Assembly (NCBI RefSeq): GCF_016904885.1
Contig: NZ_JADWYI010000001.1
Coordinates: 7,049,224 to 7,113,223 of the forward strand
Origin: [Archangium] primigenium
Lineage (GTDB): Bacteria; Myxococcota; Myxococcia; Myxococcales; Myxococcaceae
Length of the DNA: 64,000 bases
Reading direction: 5' to 3'
Positions 3,931-62,300 of this stretch are shown here, piece after piece. Within the stretch, counting starts at the first letter, position 1, and each line of letters begins with the position of its first letter. A program made the translations under genes and the position numbers. Under the pieces are notes generated by a model that ran no database searches, was not told the DNA's origin, and was given only the letters and a program-made list of their open reading frames with translations.

Positions 3931-5256
3931 TCAGTTTCCAGAAACCTTCAAGTCCGGCGCCACCGGCGGCGTCACCTCGCGGCCCGCCACCGGCGCGCGC
4001 AGCAGCCACAACGCCCCCGCCATCCCCACGGACATGGGGAGCAGCAGCGCGATGAGGCGCCAATTGTCCTGATCGAACAGGGGCAACACCTTGAGCACGA
4101 GCCCGAAGAGCCCCAGGGCCGCCAGCGCCCGCCACAGCCACTCCAGGCGCGCGCGGGCCTTCGCGCTCCCGGCCATCAGTTGCAGCCCCAGGGGCAGCGC
4201 GAGCACGGTGAGCGGATTGGCCAGGAACAGGTTCTCGTTGCGGTACGTCACCGTGTGATCCGTGCCGAGCCACATGATGAACAGCGCCAGGCCGGGGATG
4301 CCGAACACCAGGCCCATCAGCACGTTCTGCAGCCCCAGCAGCACCCGCGGCAGCCGCGCGCCCTTCTTGCGCTGCCACGCGGCCAGGCCCATCGAGGCCC
4401 CGCCCAGCACGAGGCCCAGCATCAACATCACCGGCGCGTACCGGGGCGGCTGCTCGGGCGTGACCGGACGGCCCTTGGACTCGTAGAACTTCACGGTCCG
4501 GTCCACGAGCGCGTGCGACGGACCGTCCGTGGCCGTCACCTGGAGTTGGGCCACCTGCCGCTCCAGCTCGTCCGGGAGGAACGCCTCCTGCCACCGGGTG
4601 ATGGGCTTGTCGATCTCGTCGTTCATCAGGAAGTCGAGCAGGACGCTCATGGGCGGATTCACGGCGGTGTAGCGCCGCGTGTGCTCGCGCAGCGTCATGC
4701 GCCCGGGGACCTCGTCCGCCCGGCGGAGCTGACCGCCCACCACCGCGTCGATCATGTCGCGCAGCCGGGTGACGCAGTTGTCGTTGTAGTGGTGGTAGAG
4801 GTACTGACGGTTCTCGGGCAGCACGTTCACCGCGAGCAGCCGGCCCAGTTCCTTCTTCTGCTCGGGTGACAGGTCGAGCTGCTGCAGCCGCACGTCCCGG
4901 TTGAGCGAGCGGTAGAAGCGGAAGGTGGGGCCCGGGGCCGAGTCGTCCACCCAGAATTCGAGCCGACCCATCGCGTAGCGCGCCAGCATGCGCTCGTCGA
5001 AGGAGAACATCCCGTAGTTGTAGAGGCGCGAGGTGCGCAGCCGGGCGTCCTCCACCACGAGCGAGCCGTGGCCGAAGTACGAGGGCACGTCATCGCCCGG
5101 TCCGAAGGTGGCCAGGTAGATGGACAGGTCCTCGCCCCGGCTCTCGCCCGTTCCCCAGGGAGGCATGTCCTGGGCATGCGCCGGAGCGGCGACGAGCAGC
5201 AGGCCCAGCACGAAGAGCATCGACGAGGTCAAGCGAGGCATGGTCCGTTCCAACAC
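3931..5256 (-). CDS. DUF4105-family membrane protein (N-terminal signal peptide, C-terminal multi-TM)
   Basis: 441 aa. Signal peptide, FGHGSL motif typical of DUF4105, several C-terminal TM helices. Confidence 0.5.
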   Translation of the reverse strand: MLERTMPRLTSSMLFVLGLLLVAAPAHAQDMPPWGTGESRGEDLSIYLATFGPGDDVPSYFGHGSLVVEDARLRTSRLYNYGMFSFDERMLARYAMGRLEFWVDDSAPGPTFRFYRSLNRDVRLQQLDLSPEQKKELGRLLAVNVLPENRQYLYHHYNDNCVTRLRDMIDAVVGGQLRRADEVPGRMTLREHTRRYTAVNPPMSVLLDFLMNDEIDKPITRWQEAFLPDELERQVAQLQVTATDGPSHALVDRTVKFYESKGRPVTPEQPPRYAPVMLMLGLVLGGASMGLAAWQRKKGARLPRVLLGLQNVLMGLVFGIPGLALFIMWLGTDHTVTYRNENLFLANPLTVLALPLGLQLMAGSAKARARLEWLWRALAALGLFGLVLKVLPLFDQDNWRLIALLLPMSVGMAGALWLLRAPVAGREVTPPVAPDLKVSGN

Positions 5257-53834: not shown

Positions 53835-54203
53835 ATGGTTTCCGCCGGGGACGCACGCAAGGTACTGGTCGTCGATGACGACGCGGATTGGCGCGAGTTC
53901 CTCCGGCTGTGCCTGGAGGAGCTGGGCTACGAGGCCATCGAGGCGGCCAATGGCCAGGAGGCCCTCGATTCGCTGGCGCGACAGCGCTACGGCGTGATGC
54001 TCCTGGACCTGAACATGCCGGGAATGAATGGCCTCGAGGTCTTGGAGCGGATGCCGCGCGGGGATCCTCCCCGCGTGGTCCTGCTGACGGGCGCGGCGGT
54101 GCAGGACGTGGGCGGGGCCCTCCGCTCGGGACCGCACTACTACCTGCCCAAGGGCGCGAGCCGGGACCAGTTGTCGCTGCTGCTCCAGTCCCTGGACACC
54201 TGA
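53835..54203 (+). CDS. Single-domain response regulator
   Basis: VLVVDDD...DLNMPGMNG... Confidence 0.7.
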   Translation: MVSAGDARKVLVVDDDADWREFLRLCLEELGYEAIEAANGQEALDSLARQRYGVMLLDLNMPGMNGLEVLERMPRGDPPRVVLLTGAAVQDVGGALRSGPHYYLPKGASRDQLSLLLQSLDT

Positions 54204-54413
54204 GTCGCCCCCGAGCGGGTCGCGAGTCGCCCCCGAGCGGGTCGCATGACCCACGGACCGTTCCGAGGGCCCGAGCCCGGACATGTATCTCCGGGTGGAC
54301 AGTTGGCCCGCCGCGCGCCGAGTCGTCGCCGCTCCGCGCGCCCGTGCCCGAATGCGTGCTTGCGTCGGTCGAGGAAGTCGGCTACTTACCCGCCCACGTC
54401 GGAGGAGTGGTTC

Positions 54414-54487
54414 GCGCGATTAGCTCAGCTGGATAGAGCGTTGGCCTCCGAAGCCAAAGGCCGCTGGTTCGACTCCAGCATCGCGCA
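54414..54487 (+). tRNA. tRNA-Arg (anticodon CCG)
   Basis: Cloverleaf. Acceptor GCGCGAT/ATCGCGC, D-arm GCTC-AGCTGGATA-GAGC, anticodon loop CTCCGAA, T-arm GCTGG-TTCGACT-CCAGC. No encoded CCA. Confidence 0.85.
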
Positions 54488-54539
54488 CACAGTCAACCCG
54501 GCGGAATCTCTCGGGAAATCACGAGGGATTCCGCCGGGG

Positions 54540-55006
54540 ATGACATTCCGGCACTCCCCCATCAGTCAGTTGCAAGTCCGCGTCGTGCGACCGCTCCAGG
54601 CCTGACGAGGGCTGCGGGTTGCTCCACCACCCCGCCTGCGCCCGCCCGGGCGTACTGGTACGGCGGTCCGGCGGGTCTGAACGTCGGCGGTGACGTCCTC
54701 CCGCCGTCTGTCACTGGCGCACCGCCCCTGCTCGACCCCGACTCCGGCCAGGTCGGGCTGCTCCCCGGCGGCCCGCGGCAGGACAGGGTCTACGTCACCG
54801 ACCGGTACGAGATGGCGGAGGTGGTCGCCGCCCTGCACCCGGACAAGGGCTGCGTCTACCGCGTCCTGCCCGAAGCGCCCCTGGAGGACGCCGACAACCC
54901 GGGCGTCTTCTGGCTCTGCACGCGGGCGCGGGTTGTGTCCGTGCACCCGCTCGATGACGCCACCGAACTGCGCATCCTCAAGGGGCTCGCGGGGGAGGCG
55001 TCATGA
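54540..55006 (+). pseudogene. Arr-like (rifampin ADP-ribosyltransferase family) gene, frameshifted
   Basis: Frame from ATG 54540 gives MTFRHSPISQ (compare Arr MVKDWIPISH) and stops at 54605. Homology (YWYGG...LNVGGDVL...VYRVLPEAPLEDADNP...RVVSV) continues in another frame through to 55006. The Arr comparison is from memory. Confidence 0.35.
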
Positions 55007-55713
55007 GCTGCCCCCTGCCGAAGAAGCCGGTGGTGGACGTGCGCACGTACACCGTCTACCCGGACGCGCACCTCCATGGAGCCCACGGGCTGGAGCTCAA
55101 GCAGCTCCGCGCGGACGCCGAGCGCCTGGGGGACCAAGTGGACGCCACGGCCCGCGAGCTCGCGGACGCGCGCGAGGCCCTGCGGGAGGCCGAGCAGAAG
55201 CTGGTGCGGGTGGAGCAGGAGCGGGACACCGCCCGGGCGCAGCTGGACGCCATCCGCAAGGAGTTCCTCCTGCGCGACATGCCCGCGGAGGACGGGCCCG
55301 ACGCCCTGTCCTCCTTGAGGGAGTTGCTCTCGGCGTACCGCCGCCAGTTGCTCAACCTCCAGCAGGTGGGCGTGGAGCGGGACACCGCCCGGGCGGACAG
55401 CGCGCTGCTGCTCGCGCGCGTCCAGCGCGAGCGGGGCATGCTGGAGCTGCTCTTCCACTGCGGCCGCGCGGGCCACTCGGGCACGCGCTTGAAGGACGCC
55501 CTGGAGACGGTGGCGCGCTTCCTGGCCTCGGCGCCGGAGGTGTCCACGTCCAGCGGTGCCGAGCTGCTCGCCGCCGTGCGCCAGGTGATGGAGGTGGTGG
55601 ACCGGCCCACCACGCCCGAGTTGCAGGACGGACAGTTGAGCGAGCTGCACGGCGCCGTCGAGGGCCTTCGTGGCGCGCTGGCTCCGCGCGAGCAGGAGGT
55701 GGCCCGTGGCTAA
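55003..55713 (+). CDS. Hypothetical coiled-coil protein
   Basis: 236 aa, heptad-rich. ATGA overlap with the Arr-like ORF end. Confidence 0.5.
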   Translation: MSCPLPKKPVVDVRTYTVYPDAHLHGAHGLELKQLRADAERLGDQVDATARELADAREALREAEQKLVRVEQERDTARAQLDAIRKEFLLRDMPAEDGPDALSSLRELLSAYRRQLLNLQQVGVERDTARADSALLLARVQRERGMLELLFHCGRAGHSGTRLKDALETVARFLASAPEVSTSSGAELLAAVRQVMEVVDRPTTPELQDGQLSELHGAVEGLRGALAPREQEVARG

Positions 55714-56110
55714 GGCCGCCCCGAAGAAGCAGCCAGGGCCCGAGCGGGTCCCTTCCCTTCATGAATTCCAGCAGGAGGCACGCGCCAACATCGCCGAGCG
55801 CACGCCCAAGGACTTGAGCGTCGAGGAGGTGCAGTCCATTCGCGCCTTCAAGGCATCGGGCTCCACCGCCGTTGGGATTGCCCAGCAATTCCGCATCGAC
55901 CGGCGACAGGTGTCGGCGATCGTCAAGTTCCGCGTCCGCGCGGATGTGCCTCGTCCGTTCGAGACGAGCGAGCAGCGCTCCTGGCGAGAGTCAAAGCACC
56001 GGGAGAACGAGCACGACGCGAAGAAGCGGCTGGAAGCGCTCTCCGCCAAGAAGGCCGGCTCGAAGAGGAAGACGAAGCCCGGGGATGACACGTCGGAAGG
56101 TGCGTCATGA
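55706..56110 (+). CDS. Small basic protein with HTH-like segment
   Basis: GTG start. SVEEVQSIRAFKASGSTAVGIAQQFRIDRRQVSAIVK resembles an HTH. Lys-rich tail. Confidence 0.35.
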   Translation: MAKAAPKKQPGPERVPSLHEFQQEARANIAERTPKDLSVEEVQSIRAFKASGSTAVGIAQQFRIDRRQVSAIVKFRVRADVPRPFETSEQRSWRESKHRENEHDAKKRLEALSAKKAGSKRKTKPGDDTSEGAS

Positions 56111-58125
56111 GCACCCTCCGGCGCATCGCGCTCGTGGGGTGCGGCAAGGCCAAGGCATCCCAGGCCACCAAGGCGCGCCAGCTCTACACGGGCCCGCTCT
56201 TCCGCGCCTCCCTGGCCGCCGCCGAAGCCGAGTTCGGCGGTGACGTCTGGATCCTCAGTGCCAAGCACGGCCTCGTGGACCTGGACGAGGTGCTCGAGCC
56301 CTACGAGGCCACCCTGGACGGTGCCTCGCCGAAGTGCAGCTCCAACTGGGGGCTCGACGTCATCCGCAACCTCCGGGACGACGAGCACAACACCCCGGCC
56401 CACCTCACCGTGTACGCGGGTCAGGCGTACGCGCAGGCGCTCCGGCACCACCTCCCCGAGGGGTGGGTGCTCGACGAGCCCCTGGCGGGCCTCGGCCAGG
56501 GCGAGCGCCTCGGCTGGCTCAAGCAGCGCCTCGCGCGGCTCACCGCCCCCACCACCCACTCCACCTCCTCCTTTCCGGCGGGCCCCCAGGGCGCCGCCAC
56601 CGAGCCCTCCATGTCCACGGCCACCCCGCGTCTCACCGCCGAGCAGCGCCAGCAGCACTTCACGAAGGCCCTGGAGGCCGAGCGCGAGCTCGCGGATGTC
56701 CCTCTGCTGCGCGAGCGCTTCCTCCAGGCCCTCGCGCAGCAGGAAGAGCGCCTGCGCCTGTTGCTCACCCGCTCCATGGCCGCGGCCACCACGGGGGAGA
56801 ATCCCGACGCGCCCCAGCAGCAGAGCCTGGCGCTGGAGGCGAGCGCGCCCAAGAAGCGCGGTCGCCCGCGGAAGGCCCCCGCCGCCCCGGTGGTCCAGGA
56901 GCAGCAGCCGGCCGCCGCGCCGAAGAAGCGGGGCCGCCCGCGCAAGGCGCCCGTCACCCCGGCGGAGACGGGAGAGAAGCGCCTGCCCCCGGCGGAATCC
57001 GCGCGCACGGTGAAGGTGGAGGCGCCTCCCGTGGAGCCCCCGGCGCCCGTGGCTGTCATGGAGGAGGACGCGGTGCCCGCCCCGGCGGTGCCGTGCTGCA
57101 CCTGCGGCGACTCGCTGGCGGACCACCCGAAGAAGCGCTGCACGGCCAGGCGCGAGGGCAAGCCCTGCCGGTGCAAGGCCTTCCAGCTCCACCGCGTGTG
57201 GGACTGGGAATTGTGCTGGGGAGAGCACTGCGGTGTCCGCGTCTTCTGGCTCTTCCACGCAAAGGACCCCTACAACGTTCGCCACGGTCCTCTCCGCGCG
57301 CAGAGCGGCACCCTCCTGCGCCACCACCTGCAGATGGATGTGGTGGTGGAGGCGCGCAAGACGGGTGTCTGGCCCGCGGACGATGAGCACGGCGTGCCGC
57401 AGCGCGTGCTGGAGACGGTGGCGCGCGTGCTCGCCGATCATCCCCATCAGGCGCCGAGCGCGGCGTCCACAGCCACGTCCGCGCCGAGCTCCGGCGCCCC
57501 GTTGCCCGCGCAGGCCGAGGTGGCGACCGCGACTGCCCCCGAGCGCACGGACCTGGGAGCGTGGCGGGTGGAGCTGCCCGAGCGCACTGGGAACGTGCGT
57601 GTCATCCGCCTCTGGCTGGTGAATGACACCACGGGCGAGCGCGTGTCGGCGATGTGGTGGAGCACCACGGGCGACCTCGAGCCCGGACACCGAATCTCCG
57701 GCCGTGCGGAGGGCGCGGAGTTGAGCGAGGAGCTCCGGTTGAGGGCATGGTGGGCAGAGCACCAGCCGTCCGTGGTGGAGCCGCTCGTCCAGTCCTGCCG
57801 GGCCGGCCAGGTCCCCGGGCTGTGCCTGTACCTCTCGGAGTACCCGGAAGAAGGCCCCAGCCGCTACGCCCTGTCCGAGGGATGGCAACTGGAGGCCAAG
57901 GTGGACGACAGCAAGGAGCGGCCGTGGTTCCGCTTCACCCTGCCCACCGAGCGCACGGAGATGCGCGAGACAACGGGCTACTTCCACCTGCAGGACGGGA
58001 AATTCGTGGTGGCAACGCCGGCCAAGGTGGACCCGGACGCCCACCTGTACCCCGAGCTCACGTACCGGATTGCCCAGGCCGAGGCGCTCATCCACTGCGG
58101 CTTCGTCGACGAGGCGAAGCCATGA
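56107..58125 (+). CDS. Large hypothetical protein: conserved N-terminal domain, 2x AT-hook (KKRGRPRKAP), Cys-rich segment
   Basis: 672 aa. ATGA overlaps at both ends. Confidence 0.5.
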   Translation: MSTLRRIALVGCGKAKASQATKARQLYTGPLFRASLAAAEAEFGGDVWILSAKHGLVDLDEVLEPYEATLDGASPKCSSNWGLDVIRNLRDDEHNTPAHLTVYAGQAYAQALRHHLPEGWVLDEPLAGLGQGERLGWLKQRLARLTAPTTHSTSSFPAGPQGAATEPSMSTATPRLTAEQRQQHFTKALEAERELADVPLLRERFLQALAQQEERLRLLLTRSMAAATTGENPDAPQQQSLALEASAPKKRGRPRKAPAAPVVQEQQPAAAPKKRGRPRKAPVTPAETGEKRLPPAESARTVKVEAPPVEPPAPVAVMEEDAVPAPAVPCCTCGDSLADHPKKRCTARREGKPCRCKAFQLHRVWDWELCWGEHCGVRVFWLFHAKDPYNVRHGPLRAQSGTLLRHHLQMDVVVEARKTGVWPADDEHGVPQRVLETVARVLADHPHQAPSAASTATSAPSSGAPLPAQAEVATATAPERTDLGAWRVELPERTGNVRVIRLWLVNDTTGERVSAMWWSTTGDLEPGHRISGRAEGAELSEELRLRAWWAEHQPSVVEPLVQSCRAGQVPGLCLYLSEYPEEGPSRYALSEGWQLEAKVDDSKERPWFRFTLPTERTEMRETTGYFHLQDGKFVVATPAKVDPDAHLYPELTYRIAQAEALIHCGFVDEAKP

Positions 58126-59093
58126 GCTGCGCGCGGCTCCCTCAAGAAGACGGCGCGGTGGCCGTGGTGTGCCAGCGGCCACGCAAGAAGCGCCCGCCGA
58201 AGCCGCTCCGGCCCGCGCCTCCCCGCGTGGACGTGCGCCGGTTGGTGGTGGTGAGTGTCCCCGCCCCCTGGCACGTGCTGCTCGCGCTGGGGCTGTGTCC
58301 GGCGCTCTGCCTGCCCCAGAGCGAGCGCTACCTCTGGGCGGAGTACGTGGCGCTCCACGTCACCGACGCCCCGGAGGACGCCCGGGCCTTCGCGCTCGCG
58401 CGGCAGGCGGGTGTGGATGTGCCCGAGCACCCCCTGCGCGCGGTGCGCCAGGCCGTCGTCTCCGTGGTGCGCGTGGCGCGGCCGTGCTTCCCCTCCGCGG
58501 GACAGGGCGGGGCCATGACGCCGTGGTTCCACGGCGCCGCCCTGCTGCGGGTGGAGGACGCCCTCGTCCTCCACCCCATTCCCTGGGCCCAGGCGAGCGC
58601 CCCCTGCTGGGAGCCCGGAGCGGAGCTGCGCCACGAGGTGGGGCGTGCCTTCAAGGTGGCCCGGACGGCGCGCGCGCACCTCGAGGCCGAAGCCCGGCAA
58701 GAGGCGCTGCACGAGGAGCGCGCGGGGCACATGGCGGCGGAATTGGACGAGCTGCTTGGCGCGCGTCTGGCTGCGGAGGCGCGCGAGCACCCTCCAGCCC
58801 CTCGAAAGGTGCTGGGCCCTGTCGTGGTGACGCGCGTCGAGCCCGCCTCCGGGACATTCTGGGTGGCACCCGCTCCGCCGACCGAGCCCGATCCGCTGGC
58901 CGAGCTGCAGCGCCGCTACCAGGAGAGCCAGCAGCGTCTCTTCAAGCTCGCGGAGAAGTACAAGCGCTACCCGCGCAGCCCCGAGGCCATGTGCCCGGTG
59001 ACGGGCCTCAAGGGCTACCTCTGCCCGGACTGCCAGGACTACTTCACCTGGTGCCCGGGCGTCGTCCCTCACGAATGCGCGAGGCCCACATGA
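58122..59093 (+). CDS. Hypothetical protein, possible ASCH-like domain
   Basis: SVPAPWHVLLALG...RYLWAEYVALHV resembles the ASCH N-terminal pattern. C-terminal CxxC. Confidence 0.35.
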   Translation: MSCARLPQEDGAVAVVCQRPRKKRPPKPLRPAPPRVDVRRLVVVSVPAPWHVLLALGLCPALCLPQSERYLWAEYVALHVTDAPEDARAFALARQAGVDVPEHPLRAVRQAVVSVVRVARPCFPSAGQGGAMTPWFHGAALLRVEDALVLHPIPWAQASAPCWEPGAELRHEVGRAFKVARTARAHLEAEARQEALHEERAGHMAAELDELLGARLAAEAREHPPAPRKVLGPVVVTRVEPASGTFWVAPAPPTEPDPLAELQRRYQESQQRLFKLAEKYKRYPRSPEAMCPVTGLKGYLCPDCQDYFTWCPGVVPHECARPT

Positions 59094-60331
59094 GCTGCGT
59101 CGCCGACTCCACCATGGGCGACGCCCTCTCCCGGCTCCGCGCGAGCCTGGAGGCCGAGCGCCTGCGCGCGGAGCGGGCCGAGGGGAAGGTGGAGGGCTTC
59201 CGGGAGGCCTTCGCCCTGCTGGCGGGCCGCTTCGCCGCGCCCGCCGCCGAGCCCCTCCCGGAGACTGCACCTAGTCCGGCGCCCACCTCCGCCCCCGTGC
59301 TGCGCCTCGCCCAGGCCCCGAGCGAGCGTGACGGGGCGCGTGACGCCCAGCGTGACGGCGTCACGCTGGGCGTGACGGGCAGCGTGACGGGCCCCACCCC
59401 GGAGCAGCGCCGGAAGGCACAAAACCGAGAGAGAGCAAGGGCTTACCGGCTTCGCCAGGCCAGCGTGACGGCCAGCGTGACGGGCCCCACCCCGGAGCAA
59501 CACCGGAAGGCACAAAACCGAGAGAGAGCAAGGGCTTACCGGCTTCGCCAGGCCAGCGTGACGGCCAGCGTGACGCAGGAGGAGGAGGAAGAAGTAATAA
59601 CTACTCCTCCTCCTTCCTCGTCACGCGTGACGGCGAGCGTGACGGACGAGAAGCCCGTCCGGGGCACGCTCGCGCTCGTCGCCACCGCGGCGCGCGAGTC
59701 CCGCGAGGCGAAGCCACCCCCCAAGCTGCCGCCCGAGGTGCAGGCCCTGCGCGAGGCCTGGGACAGCCTGTGCGGCACGAAGAGCTTCATCCCCTGGCCC
59801 GCGCGCACCTCGGCGCGCCTGCTGGAGGACGCCCAGGCCGCCCTGGCGCGGCGGCCGCTCGAGGAGTGGCGCCGCGTCTTCGCCCTCGTGCCCCGCTCGC
59901 CGGTGTGCCGCGGAGAGCTGTCCAGCGGCCGCCGCGCGAGCCTGCTGTGGCTGCTCGCTGGCAAGACGCGGGACAACTACGAGCCCGCCGAGAAGCTCCT
60001 CGCGGGGGACTGGTCGGTGGACCCCGAGGACGCGGGAGCACCACCCGCCGTCGAGGCGCCCCCACCGGCCGCGGGCTCCGACACCCCGGCGGGCCAGGCC
60101 TGGAGCGAGGTGCTCGCCGCCCTACGTGCGGAGGGGAAGCACTACGCGCTGCAGTGGCTGGAGCAGCTGCGCGCCCGGAGCGTGGACGAGGGCCACCTGG
60201 TGCTGGAGGCCCGGGACAGCTTCGCGCGTGGGTGGATGGCCGAGCACTACGGCGAGCTGCTCGCTCGCTGCGTGGGGGTGCTGGGCCTCGCGGGCGTGCG
60301 GTACGTGCTGCCGGGGGAGGTGGGGCCATGA
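59090..60331 (+). CDS. Hypothetical protein with 2x 31-aa tandem basic repeat and DnaA-N-terminal-like C-terminal domain
   Basis: Repeat SVTGPTPEQ(R/H)RKAQNRERARAYRLRQASVTA. C-terminus W..VL..L......Y..WL..L.....D..LVLEA...F...W....Y..LL. Confidence 0.45.
   Translation: MSCVADSTMGDALSRLRASLEAERLRAERAEGKVEGFREAFALLAGRFAAPAAEPLPETAPSPAPTSAPVLRLAQAPSERDGARDAQRDGVTLGVTGSVTGPTPEQRRKAQNRERARAYRLRQASVTASVTGPTPEQHRKAQNRERARAYRLRQASVTASVTQEEEEEVITTPPPSSSRVTASVTDEKPVRGTLALVATAARESREAKPPPKLPPEVQALREAWDSLCGTKSFIPWPARTSARLLEDAQAALARRPLEEWRRVFALVPRSPVCRGELSSGRRASLLWLLAGKTRDNYEPAEKLLAGDWSVDPEDAGAPPAVEAPPPAAGSDTPAGQAWSEVLAALRAEGKHYALQWLEQLRARSVDEGHLVLEARDSFARGWMAEHYGELLARCVGVLGLAGVRYVLPGEVGP
59381..59566 (+). 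repeat. 93-bp tandem direct repeat x2 inside a CDS
   Basis: Units 59381-59473 and 59474-59566 differ at about 3 positions. Locally lower GC. Multiple AGCGTGACGG decamers. Confidence 0.8.
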
Positions 60332-60495
60332 CGCCGGGCCAGCAGTGCCTCTTTCTCCTCGCCCACGTGCTCTTCGGCTTCGCCACGCTCGGCGCGCCGC
60401 GGAAGCTGGGTGCCACGGCCGCTGCCGGGGGCGTGCTCGCCAGCCTCGTGGGCCTCGCGCGGGCCGTGGGTACTGCCCGCCGGAGGGCGCCATGA
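60328..60495 (+). CDS. Small hydrophobic peptide (55 aa)
   Basis: ATGA-coupled on both sides. Two predicted TM helices. Confidence 0.3.
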   Translation: MTPGQQCLFLLAHVLFGFATLGAPRKLGATAAAGGVLASLVGLARAVGTARRRAP

Positions 60496-60869
60496 GGTGG
60501 GCCGCCCAACGCGACAAGGCCGAGCCCGCCGTGGTGCAGGCCCTGCAACTCGCCGGGTGGACGGTGGAGAAGGTGTCCGCCCCGGGCTTCCCCGACTTGC
60601 TGTGCGTGCGCCGCGGGCAAGTGGTGCTGCTCGAGGTGAAGTCCGAGCGCGGCCGCATGCAGCGCGCCCAGGTGGAGTTGCACGCCCGCGTGCGCGCGGC
60701 CGGCCTCGTCGTGGCGGTGGTGACGACGCCCGAGGAGGCCCTCGCTGCGGTGCGCGGGGAAGTCCGCCGCTCCGCCCTCACCGAGCGCGCCGAGAAGCCC
60801 CGCGGCGCGGCTCGCTCGCTGTTGTCCCGTGCCGTCCCCAACACCTACCCGAAGGGAGAGAAGCCATGA
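60492..60869 (+). CDS. VRR-NUC domain nuclease
   Basis: GFPDLLCVRRGQVVLLEVKSERGRMQRAQ (PD-(D/E)xK core). Confidence 0.6.
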   Translation: MRWAAQRDKAEPAVVQALQLAGWTVEKVSAPGFPDLLCVRRGQVVLLEVKSERGRMQRAQVELHARVRAAGLVVAVVTTPEEALAAVRGEVRRSALTERAEKPRGAARSLLSRAVPNTYPKGEKP

Positions 60870-61309
60870 GCTGCAACAGGCCCCCACGTCCTACGCAGGC
60901 GAAGTGCGCCGACTGTCCCACCCTGGTGTCGGTGAAGAAGGTCGGCAAGGTGCCCAAGCGCTGCCCCAAGTGCGAGAGGACGTACTGGAAGGCCTACCGG
61001 CGCGAGGCCAACAAGCAGAAGCGCGAATGGAAGAAGCAGCACGGAGACGTGCCCATGCGACAAAAGCACACGGGCCCCTTCGCCCTGGGCCCGGAGCGGC
61101 CGGAGCTTGGGATGACGTCGAAAGAGTTCTCCGCATGGAAGGCGCGACGCGCGGTGGAGTTGTACGTGCGCGAGCCTGACCTGAACATGGAGTTGATTGC
61201 CGAGCGAGTGGGTCTCAGTGACAGCGAGGTGCAGCGTCTCGTGACGGAGGCCGATATTGAGCGGCACTCCCGAGTGCAGCAGTTCCTCCCGTTTGGGTTG
61301 CCGGCCTGA
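60866..61309 (+). CDS. Zinc-ribbon (CxxC...CxxC) protein with C-terminal HTH-like region
   Basis: CADCPTLVSVKKVGKVPKRCPKCE. C-terminus LIAERVGLSDSEVQRLV. Confidence 0.4.
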   Translation: MSCNRPPRPTQAKCADCPTLVSVKKVGKVPKRCPKCERTYWKAYRREANKQKREWKKQHGDVPMRQKHTGPFALGPERPELGMTSKEFSAWKARRAVELYVREPDLNMELIAERVGLSDSEVQRLVTEADIERHSRVQQFLPFGLPA

Positions 61310-62300
61310 TCAACGCGCCGCGCCACCGACATCGTGGCGCGGCTGTTCCATCAGGGGAACGGCACGCAGCAGTGTGCCGTTCCTCGTTAAATCAGGCCGC
61401 TCGAGGTAGATGCAGCAGAGCAGGCGGCGGCGTGCCATAGGTCAGTCGCCAAGTGATTTCTGCTTGGAGAATGAGTGGCATCTTCCGAAAATTGGGATTC
61501 CGCCGGTATTGAGCGAGAGCATTTTCGAACGACCCAGCGACCCAGTTTCCCGTTCGGTCAGCAGAGATAGGGCCGTGGATCAAGGGAATGCCTAGCTTTA
61601 CGTAGCACTGCTTCCAGGGTCGTTCGACTCGGACGAATCCGTCGCGTTCCATGGACGCGACAAACACTAGGGCATCGCACCGACGACCACTAAGGTGTGA
61701 GGGTGTAGTCGTGCAGAATCCGCAGCGAACGCAGAGAGTAAACGGGCGGCTCATTCGTTCGCCCCCCTTCGCTTCTCGTACCGTACACGGTACAGATCAG
61801 TCTCCCTTGCGCAGCACAAGAAACTGGTGCACCATGCGCGGTACAGATTCGTGATGTCGACCCTTCCTGGTCGCATCTTGGATGTGGCAGTCATGTGCAG
61901 TCCTTTCGTCGATTCGAGCGACGGAACCAGGAGACTTCGGCGCGCTAACGCCGAAGTCTCCGTGTTTGCGCGTGGCACCATTCACGCGAACTCACAACCT
62001 CGCCTGAGAACCAGAATTCGTCAACGTGCTCCGCCAATATTACGCGTGTGGGCGGATGTGGCTCGCTGTGTTTCATGGGTAACCGAGGTTTGATCGCCTT
62101 GCGTTCCGCCCTGGCGTGCGCGACCTGAACGACAAATTAGCGCAATCTCGCTGTTCTGTCTGAGTACCCCCGCAGAATTGCTTAGGGCACTTGCGCCGCC
62201 AGCGTCTGCTTGCCTCAGTCCATAGGTAGACAACCCTCCTGAGTCGCGACGGCACTCCTCTCGGAGACACCCGCGTCTGAGGAGACAAGAGCACGTTCCA
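61310..62300. other. Low-GC (about 55%) non-coding tract with inverted and direct repeats
   Basis: No credible ORF. GTTCGACTC (61622-30) is identical to the tRNA-Arg T-arm. 21-bp near-palindrome at 61641-61. GTACCGT-AC-ACGGTAC. CGGTACAGAT x2. 13-bp hairpin at 61930-61. Confidence 0.6.
61317..61389 (+). terminator. Two tandem perfect 10-bp hairpins ending the island operon
   Basis: GCCGCGCCAC-7-GTGGCGCGGC and GGAACGGCAC-8-GTGCCGTTCC followed by TCGTTAAAT. Confidence 0.5.

Follow-up and report, generated by a model that had tools for sequence, protein, structure and literature searches.

A degenerate, probably non-functional phage-type ADP-ribosyltransferase gene of the Arr family next to tRNA-Arg(CCG) in [Archangium] primigenium

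Does the DNA that follows the tRNA-Arg(CCG) gene of [Archangium] primigenium hold a working ADP-ribosyltransferase gene of the rifampin-modifying Arr type, the remains of one, or an intact gene hidden by a sequencing error? The locus lies in a 64,000-nucleotide (nt) stretch, referred to here as the window, and an earlier note on this DNA had described it as a frameshifted Arr-like gene abutting the 3′ end of the tRNA, either decaying antibiotic-modifying or ADP-ribosyltransferase cargo or a product of faulty sequencing. We favor, with moderate confidence, the reading that window positions 54650–55006 hold a copy of a small phage-type ADP-ribosyltransferase gene that has degenerated and most likely no longer functions. 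The parts of this reading are not equally firm. The Arr-family homology and fold of the domain are nearly certain and loss of function as an enzyme, as the gene is assembled, is very likely, while a true pseudogene, as opposed to an assembly error or unusual expression, is only fairly probable. We infer that no full-length active enzyme is made, that the lesions are genuine mutations and not assembly errors, and that the intact ancestors were active ADP-ribosyltransferases. The features that bear on the question are as follows.

54540–54605, forward strand: 21-codon open reading frame (ORF) MTFRHSPISQLQVRVVRPLQA in frame 0, ending in TGA 54603–54605 (ORF list and translation).
54585–54650, forward strand: interval with a net 1-nt frame break (DNA alignment A1 and frame distances).
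54650–55006, forward strand: Arr-like ADP-ribosyltransferase domain in frame 2, 118 codons plus stop (translation, third-position GC, PHROG, profile, AlphaFold2 and Foldseek).
54659–54661, forward strand: TAC (Tyr) in place of the near-invariant catalytic His (His19 of Arr-ms); CAC in the related loci L002 and L004.
54812–55006, forward strand: the sole ORF with a canonical start in the domain frame, 64 amino acids (aa), without the His and Tyr motifs.
54908–54910, forward strand: TTC (Phe) where 90% of the family has Ser; same change in the Melittangium boletus remnant.
55003–55713, forward strand: coiled-coil protein of 236 aa whose ATG overlaps the Arr-like stop.

The domain is encoded in the frame whose codons start at positions equal to 2 modulo 3. 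This frame is open from 54437 to the TGA at 55004–55006 and encodes ...AYWYGGPAGLNVGGDVLPPSVTG...RQDRVYVTDRYEMAEVVAALHPDKGCVYRVLPEAPLEDADNPGVFWLCTRARVVSVHPLDD...EAS; AYWYGG, GLNVGGDVL, VYRVLPEAPLEDADNP and RVVSVHPLDD, the stretches in which the earlier note saw the resemblance to Arr, are all found in it up to 55006. The GC content at third codon positions (GC3) is 0.9–1.0 from ~54680 to ~54980, as is normal for coding sequence in this 71%-GC genome, and the domain frame is therefore a real coding frame. Its stop overlaps the ATG at 55003 of the next gene as ATGA, again as previously described; the same 4-nt overlap is present in two related metagenomic loci, L002 and L004, where the pairing of Arr-like and coiled-coil genes is also kept (coiled-coil proteins of 246 and 222 aa, respectively). 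The 64-aa ORF at 54812–55006 is identical to the public annotation WP_204492329.1, a ‘hypothetical protein’ of [Archangium] primigenium, which covers only the last 64 codons of the Arr-like gene.

The assignment to the Arr family stands on a family profile (E 8e-8) and a structural model, but not on direct sequence searches. With a threshold as permissive as E ≤ 10, the 171-residue translation still matched neither Pfam Arr-ms nor any NCBIfam model, and a phmmer search of PDB sequences returned no Arr match. A word-seeded search with the window protein recovered six homologs (E 7e-44 to 2e-9), and a HMMER profile scan of 1.84 billion cluster representatives retrieved 1030 proteins at E ≤ 1e-3 (454 at E ≤ 1e-10), mostly 110–150 aa in length. 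Alignment A4 comprises 137 family members and the window protein; every one of the 137 matches PHROG 17296, annotated as ‘unknown function’ (best 3e-38), and 126 of them match Pfam Arr-ms (PF12120) at E ≤ 1 (best 7.6e-10). The core of the window protein matches PHROG 17296 with an E value of 2.6e-11 (44.7 bits, residues 2–98), and against a family hidden Markov model (HMM) built without it the window protein scores 104 bits, compared with 151 bits for the intact myxobacterial relative P0001. The curated gathering score of Arr-ms, 25 bits, is not reached by the window protein, and P0001 and another relative, P0003, score 16.3 and 13.3 bits, while some more distant family members pass it at 25.2–29.4 bits. 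By these scores, the PHROG 17296 family straddles the boundary of the Pfam Arr-ms model.

Searched against the sequences of crystal structures, the A4 profile matches Arr-ms (2hw2 and 9iaf) at E ~8e-8 and ARR-2 (9iba) at E 2.5e-4. The AlphaFold2 (AF2) model of the 118-residue domain has a predicted local distance difference test score (pLDDT) of 91.2 and a predicted template modeling score (pTM) of 0.84, and its top Foldseek match in the PDB is 2hw2 (E 3.5e-5, probability 1.00, TM 0.55), followed by 9iaf (E 1.7e-4, probability 1.00). These two are the sole significant matches; after Arr-ms come weak ones to Tpt1/KptA (1wfx, 8tfi, 8tg6) and cholera toxin. Because both the family profile and the AF2 model match Arr-ms, the Arr-like label is correct in the sense of a divergent phage subfamily, the relatedness to Arr holding only transitively, by way of the profile and the predicted structure. 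The possibility that the resemblance to Arr arose by chance in a GC-rich open frame that is no gene at all would agree with the lack of direct Pfam, NCBIfam and PDB sequence matches for the window protein. It is refuted by the homologs, the PHROG 17296 match, the 104-bit HMM score, a GC3 of ~0.95 and a model of pLDDT 91 with the Arr fold, and we give it practically no weight.

Known members of the family point to phages. In tblastn searches the matches included gp70 of Streptomyces phage TurkishDelight, annotated as ‘ADP-ribosyltransferase’ (44% identity), and an ORF of Sinorhizobium phage PBC5 (32%), and enzymes belonging to the rifampin-ADP-ribosyltransferase family have been listed for actinophages as well as Sinorhizobium phage PBC5 (Iyer et al. 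2022, PMC9503650). Other family members sit in phage early regions among RecT, YqaJ, DnaB, RusA, HNH, Lar and M78-repressor genes, with no constant neighbor. Viral contigs searched with the Arr-like alignment and with the DUF6884 N-terminus of a downstream protein yielded no related loci, and a search of genome contigs for related loci found none. Three ORFs of the window, looked up as exact proteins, matched no contig either. Within A4, two PHROG 17296 family members also match the SEC-C motif and one matches Lar restriction-alleviation; in another locus, L011 (834–1561), a Lar gene lies directly upstream of the ADP-ribosyltransferase gene. This hints at a role in phage–host conflict rather than in antibiotic resistance.

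These data also bear on the antibiotic-modifying role that had been proposed for the gene. A bona fide rifamycin-resistance arr gene carried as resistance cargo, or a pseudogene of one, would explain why fold and family profile lead to Arr-ms and ARR-2, and antibiotic modification has been considered the simplest reading for phage Arr-family ADP-ribosyltransferases (PMC9503650). However, the window protein has no Pfam Arr-ms match and its close relatives reach only 13–16 bits against the 25-bit cut-off, the structural alignment shows 20% identity to Arr-ms, the stretch that separates the His from the Tyr motif (LPPSVTG...) is unlike Arr, the family is short and has no Arr N-terminal segment, the neighbors are phage early and recombination genes and not resistance cassettes, and the catalytic His of the window copy is lost. 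We therefore regard resistance cargo as very improbable; by sequence, the protein belongs to the divergent phage subfamily PHROG 17296 and not to rifampin-resistance Arr proper. As a wider but doubtful possibility, PHROG 17296, with its more than 1000 clusters, may be a phage ADP-ribosyltransferase of host takeover or counter-defense with a macromolecular target and not an antibiotic-modifying enzyme. In the scheme we favor, this PHROG is a branch that has diverged within the Arr (PF12120) family while keeping its fold, and its intact members are proteins of ~110–150 aa from phage or prophage early regions that, by homology to Arr, would bind NAD+ through a His-Tyr-Asp triad and pass ADP-ribose to some acceptor. 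The window copy lies where a prophage-like remnant meets the tRNA; as assembled, it has no canonical in-frame start, its frame is broken relative to the leader and its catalytic His is replaced.

An intact gene would have a canonical in-frame start upstream of the catalytic motifs, and the window has none: in the domain frame, read from 54437, no ATG, GTG or TTG occurs until 54812, past both the His and the Tyr motif. A short leader with the consensus CCCCC-R-TCAGTC-M-GTTGCAAG...CG-R-CC is conserved in three lineages; it encodes LQVRVVRP in the window, against LQVGATRP (L002) and LQAAAMRP (L004). The TTG of this leader and the Tyr codon of Y-W-H/Y-G-G are 83 nt apart in the window (2 modulo 3), whereas the corresponding distances in L002 and L004 are 138 and 162 nt (0 modulo 3 in each). 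In alignment A1 the ATG of P0003 aligns with the window GTG at 54585, which is out of frame, and no window ATG stands where the start codon of P0001 aligns. A single base added near 54593 produces the continuous ORF (M)RPxPGLTRAAGCSTTPPAPARAYWYGG...EAS. That the gene is frameshifted, as first proposed, is thus borne out by a net 1-nt break between leader and domain relative to two in-frame relatives, together with the missing canonical start; as far as the alignment can tell, the break is secure, and its exact position is ambiguous because the intervening region is low-complexity and indel-rich. A programmed ribosomal (−1) frameshift was considered and rejected, as inspection of 54540–54605 revealed no slippery heptamer and neither L002 nor L004 needs a shift to stay in frame.

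Two further proposals about the 5′ end do not hold. An ATG downstream of the tRNA does open a short ORF (ATG 54540, 52 nt beyond the last tRNA base, 21 codons followed by TGA), but the suggestion that its MTFRHSPISQ corresponds to the N-terminus of Arr is contradicted by the lack of conservation of ATG 54540 in L002 and L004, by the absence of any match of MTFRHSPISQLQVRVVRPLQA among PDB sequences and by the family itself, most members of which start only 2–10 residues before the YxHGG motif. Only the 3′ part of this ORF (~54557–54595, with TTG 54570 and GTG 54585) is conserved in the relatives, where it shares the reading frame of the enzyme domain. Likewise, the ~15 extra residues that had been ascribed to a frameshifting indel belong to a feature of the clade, a low-complexity N-terminal extension that spans 36 and 49 residues before the motif in the in-frame relatives and is shorter in the window. 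At the end of the 21-codon ORF, a CTG at 54602 is in frame with the ADP-ribosyltransferase domain, overlaps the TGA as CTGA and aligns with codon 2 (CTG) of P0001; it is a conceivable site of termination–reinitiation.

The second lesion concerns the active site. According to the passage of PMC13246000 that cites Baysarowich 2008, activity of Arr-ms requires His19, Tyr49 and Asp84. In the A4 profile alignment these residues map to the YxHGG, RVYVT and DPD motifs of the family (YLHGT in Arr-ms), and the triad is conserved in intact members. His occupies the His19-equivalent column in 133 of the 134 other family members, and the window has Tyr. It keeps the RVYV Tyr and, in D-A-D, the leading Asp. 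It carries further deviations from Gly to Ala (a column 86% conserved) and from Pro to Ala (83%), and one residue is deleted ahead of the DPD motif, whereas P0001 has no deviations at conserved columns. Since the catalytic His is replaced by Tyr, even a frame-corrected product is predicted from its sequence to be inactive.

The His-to-Tyr change also weakens the second half of the original proposal, an intact gene hidden by a sequencing error. In that case a 1-nt assembly deletion would conceal a protein of ~141–156 aa starting at GTG 54585, TTG 54570 or ATG 54540, and the restoration of a single continuous ORF by one base after ~54593 and the strong coding signature kept by the domain are what it would lead one to expect. 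But the record is a single 9.47-Mb contig, and correcting the frame leaves TAC in place of CAC, so that a second, independent substitution error would be needed. The Ser-to-Phe change at 54908–54910 is moreover shared with the independently sequenced genome of M. boletus and is hence real, and decay is likewise seen in the closest relatives from isolate genomes. We consider an assembly error unlikely.

The closest copy in an isolate genome is the M. boletus locus (85% nt identity). Its Arr-like gene is truncated at the 5′ end, contains a stop produced by TGG to TGA and has Gly for Asp at the Asp84 equivalent, and a deletion joins the Arr-like remnant with the coiled-coil gene and, beyond that, with the DnaA_N gene; this copy is plainly dead, judging by its sequence. 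Being common to the window and M. boletus, the Ser-to-Phe change is older than their split. The remnant (L001, CP185340.1, 9994–10688) is a collapsed version of the same element that adjoins a tRNA-Arg(CCT) on the opposite strand, and it juxtaposes pieces matching window positions 54673–54939, 55096–55179 and 59750–60100 at 85–94% identity.

Beyond isolates, the order tRNA-Arg(CCG), Arr-like gene and coiled-coil gene with 4-nt overlap recurs in two metagenomic lineages, one represented by L002, L003 and L007 and the other by L004 and L005, which differ in the genes upstream of the tRNA; the sole locus returned by the search of metagenome contigs was L007, which is of the same type as L002. Catalytic residues are missing from called full-length ORFs of the same myxobacterial clade as well: P0003 (L004, 4976–5476) has RVSV for RVYV (Tyr to Ser), and P0007 has YWQGG and RVSV (His to Gln, Tyr to Ser). 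These triad losses fit either decay throughout the clade or a role that does not depend on catalysis.

The latter possibility leads to two readings in which the gene is still used. In the first, the present sequence would be translated from a non-canonical start such as CTG 54602, yielding a catalytically dead protein with a non-enzymatic role or a frame kept only to bring ribosomes to the overlapping downstream gene. The stop-free frame, the high GC3, the conserved ATGA coupling, the alignment of CTG 54602 with the second codon of P0001 and the existence of P0003 and P0007 as full-length ORFs without catalytic residues all speak for it, as does the catalysis-independent function documented for M. 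smegmatis Arr (PMC3138739). Against this, inspection found no Shine-Dalgarno-like sequence upstream of CTG 54602, ATG 54540 lacks conservation and lies at the base of a −42 kcal/mol hairpin, and different catalytic losses in different copies are also predicted by neutral decay. CTG starts are, in addition, very rare in bacteria, and we hold this first reading to be unlikely. The second, in which the tRNA-Arg-linked myxobacterial Arr-like genes as a whole form a clade without catalysis that is still expressed, seems to us quite doubtful. Here the window gene would be expressed by reinitiation at CTG 54602, overlapping the stop of the 21-codon ORF, and its product might work non-enzymatically alongside the translationally coupled coiled-coil protein, for instance as a regulator or binding partner, echoing mycobacterial Arr.

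Several observations weigh against our preferred reading of a degenerate, non-functional gene. The ratio of nonsynonymous to synonymous substitution rates (dN/dS) is 0.37–0.48 relative to two metagenomic relatives and 0.63 relative to M. boletus. We take these values to reflect mostly ancestral constraint; those of 0.37–0.48 imply that decay is recent or that some constraint persists. The domain runs for 118 codons without an internal stop, with a GC3 of ~0.95 and the 4-nt overlap with the next gene retained, although the absence of stops is weak evidence either way because long open frames are expected by chance at ~71% GC. The window protein deviates at 4 of 24 conserved columns, which is no extreme count, as 14% of family members have at least four such deviations. 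Finally, the placement of the frame break rests on a low-complexity alignment with only two relatives, whose start codons are predicted.

The gene lies directly 3′ of the tRNA, as the earlier note had described, and at the head of a prophage-like block. The elements on the tRNA side are as follows.

54414–54488, forward strand: tRNA-Arg with anticodon CCG (ARAGORN; Rfam RF00005, 71.7 bits).
54497–54538, forward strand: 17-bp hairpin directly 3′ of the tRNA, without a T-tract (minimum free energy −42 kcal/mol, z −8.3).

The tRNA-Arg(CCG) is the single tRNA that ARAGORN detects in the window and the sole match of the Rfam scan, and it is also present, directly 5′ of the homologous Arr-like gene, in the metagenomic relatives L002, L003, L004, L005 and L007. 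The hairpin that follows it, at the foot of which ATG 54540 lies, is kept in three lineages (window 54497–54538; L002 3097–3138; L004 ~4887–4927), and the consensus fold of the three loci has 21 pairs, three of them changed on both sides (compensatory). It could be an element of tRNA 3′ processing, a terminator or part of an attachment site. Scans of 54250–55100 found no sigma-70-like promoter and no intrinsic terminator. A sigma-54 promoter with the conserved TTGCA (54570) as its −12 element was rejected by inspection, since the sole GGCAC (54550) is ~10 nt too far upstream and is not kept in L002. Upstream, ~170 nt before the tRNA, a 22-nt unit, GAGTCGCCCCCGAGCGGGTCGC, forms a perfect tandem duplication (54202–54245) directly 3′ of the stop of a response-regulator gene (TGA 54201–54203).

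Downstream, the Arr-like gene heads a co-oriented block of ~7 kb that reaches ~61.3 kb, as seen in the GC-phase plot and in Pfam and PHROGs matches. Beyond the coiled-coil gene it contains the following, all on the forward strand.

55670–61309, forward strand: rest of the co-oriented prophage-like block (GC-phase plot, Pfam, PHROGs).
56107–58125, forward strand: 672-aa DUF6884 protein (phrog_5935; N-terminal DUF6884, E 1.6e-35).
Within the block, forward strand: 146-aa ORF with weak endonuclease matches.
Within the block, forward strand: protein of ~323 aa with no family match.
Within the block, forward strand: protein of ~413 aa with a DnaA_N domain.
Within the block, forward strand: VRR-NUC/Holliday-junction-resolvase-like protein (phrog_93, phrog_5702).
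Within the block, forward strand: 147-aa ORF.

The DUF6884 protein carries two copies of the AT-hook-like PKKRGRPRKAP in a Pro/Ala-rich linker, and its large C-terminal part has no family match. The block is probably a prophage or island remnant and may extend beyond the window. Its phage-like genes do adjoin a tRNA; none of the ORFs scanned from 55.0 to 63.9 kb carries an integrase domain, and a second copy of the 23-nt tRNA 3′ end, as an att repeat at the far end, was not found with up to 3 mismatches allowed. An exact 13-nt direct repeat, GGGATTCCGCCGG, occurs at 54525–54537 and 61494–61506 (blastn-short E 0.025), that is, in the 3′ arm of the post-tRNA hairpin and in a low-GC stretch just after the last phage-like gene. 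The two copies are candidate boundaries of a ~7 kb island; chance is also possible. The ~0.9 kb stretch at ~61350–62250 has ~60% GC versus ~72% around it, shows no codon-position GC signature and contains ORFs without a Pfam match.

By itself the window copy is of little significance: the family is already known in outline, and this is a further, broken member of it. A public 64-aa ‘hypothetical protein’ can be corrected to the tail of a degenerate Arr-family gene, and the gene is very unlikely to be a live rifamycin-resistance determinant. Of wider use, PHROG 17296, until now of ‘unknown function’ and comprising more than 1000 clusters, mostly from phage early regions, is tied to the Arr fold by profile and structure, and tRNA-Arg(CCG), an Arr-like gene and a coiled-coil gene recur together as a module in myxobacterial metagenomes.

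The window domain can be compared with several known systems. With Arr-ms and ARR-2 (PF12120; 2HW2, 9IAF, 9IBA) it shares a small single-domain ADP-ribosyltransferase fold and the order of the motifs x-H-G, (I/V)-Y-(I/V)-T, V-E-P-x-G-x-x-E-x-D-P-(N/D) and S-(F/Y)-x-x-C. It differs from them in its identity of only ~20%, in the missing Arr N-terminal segment, in the LPPSVTG loop between the His and Tyr motifs and in its phage or prophage context in place of a chromosomal or integron resistance gene, and the window copy further has Tyr for His19 and no in-frame start. PARP13/ZAP is an inactive protein of the ADP-ribosyltransferase fold with Y-Y-V in place of the H-Y-E triad. By that description it resembles the window copy in the replacement of the NAD+-binding triad His by Tyr; however, such proteins are conserved, expressed pseudoenzymes, whereas the change in the window is unique among 134 family members and is accompanied by loss of the start codon. 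Tpt1/KptA RNA 2′-phosphotransferases are two-domain proteins with an H-H-R-R motif set. Their fold is related, as reflected in weak Foldseek matches with a TM of ~0.4, but the Foldseek probability is only 0.2–0.4 and there is no sequence-level match. The phage Arr-family proteins of PHROG 17296, such as TurkishDelight gp70 and the PBC5 ORF, belong to the same direct sequence family, have the same size and are placed among early, replication and recombination genes. Unlike these, the window protein and the myxobacterial P0001 and P0003 carry a low-complexity N-terminal extension, and the window copy is degenerate and follows directly upon tRNA-Arg(CCG), with translational coupling to a coiled-coil protein.

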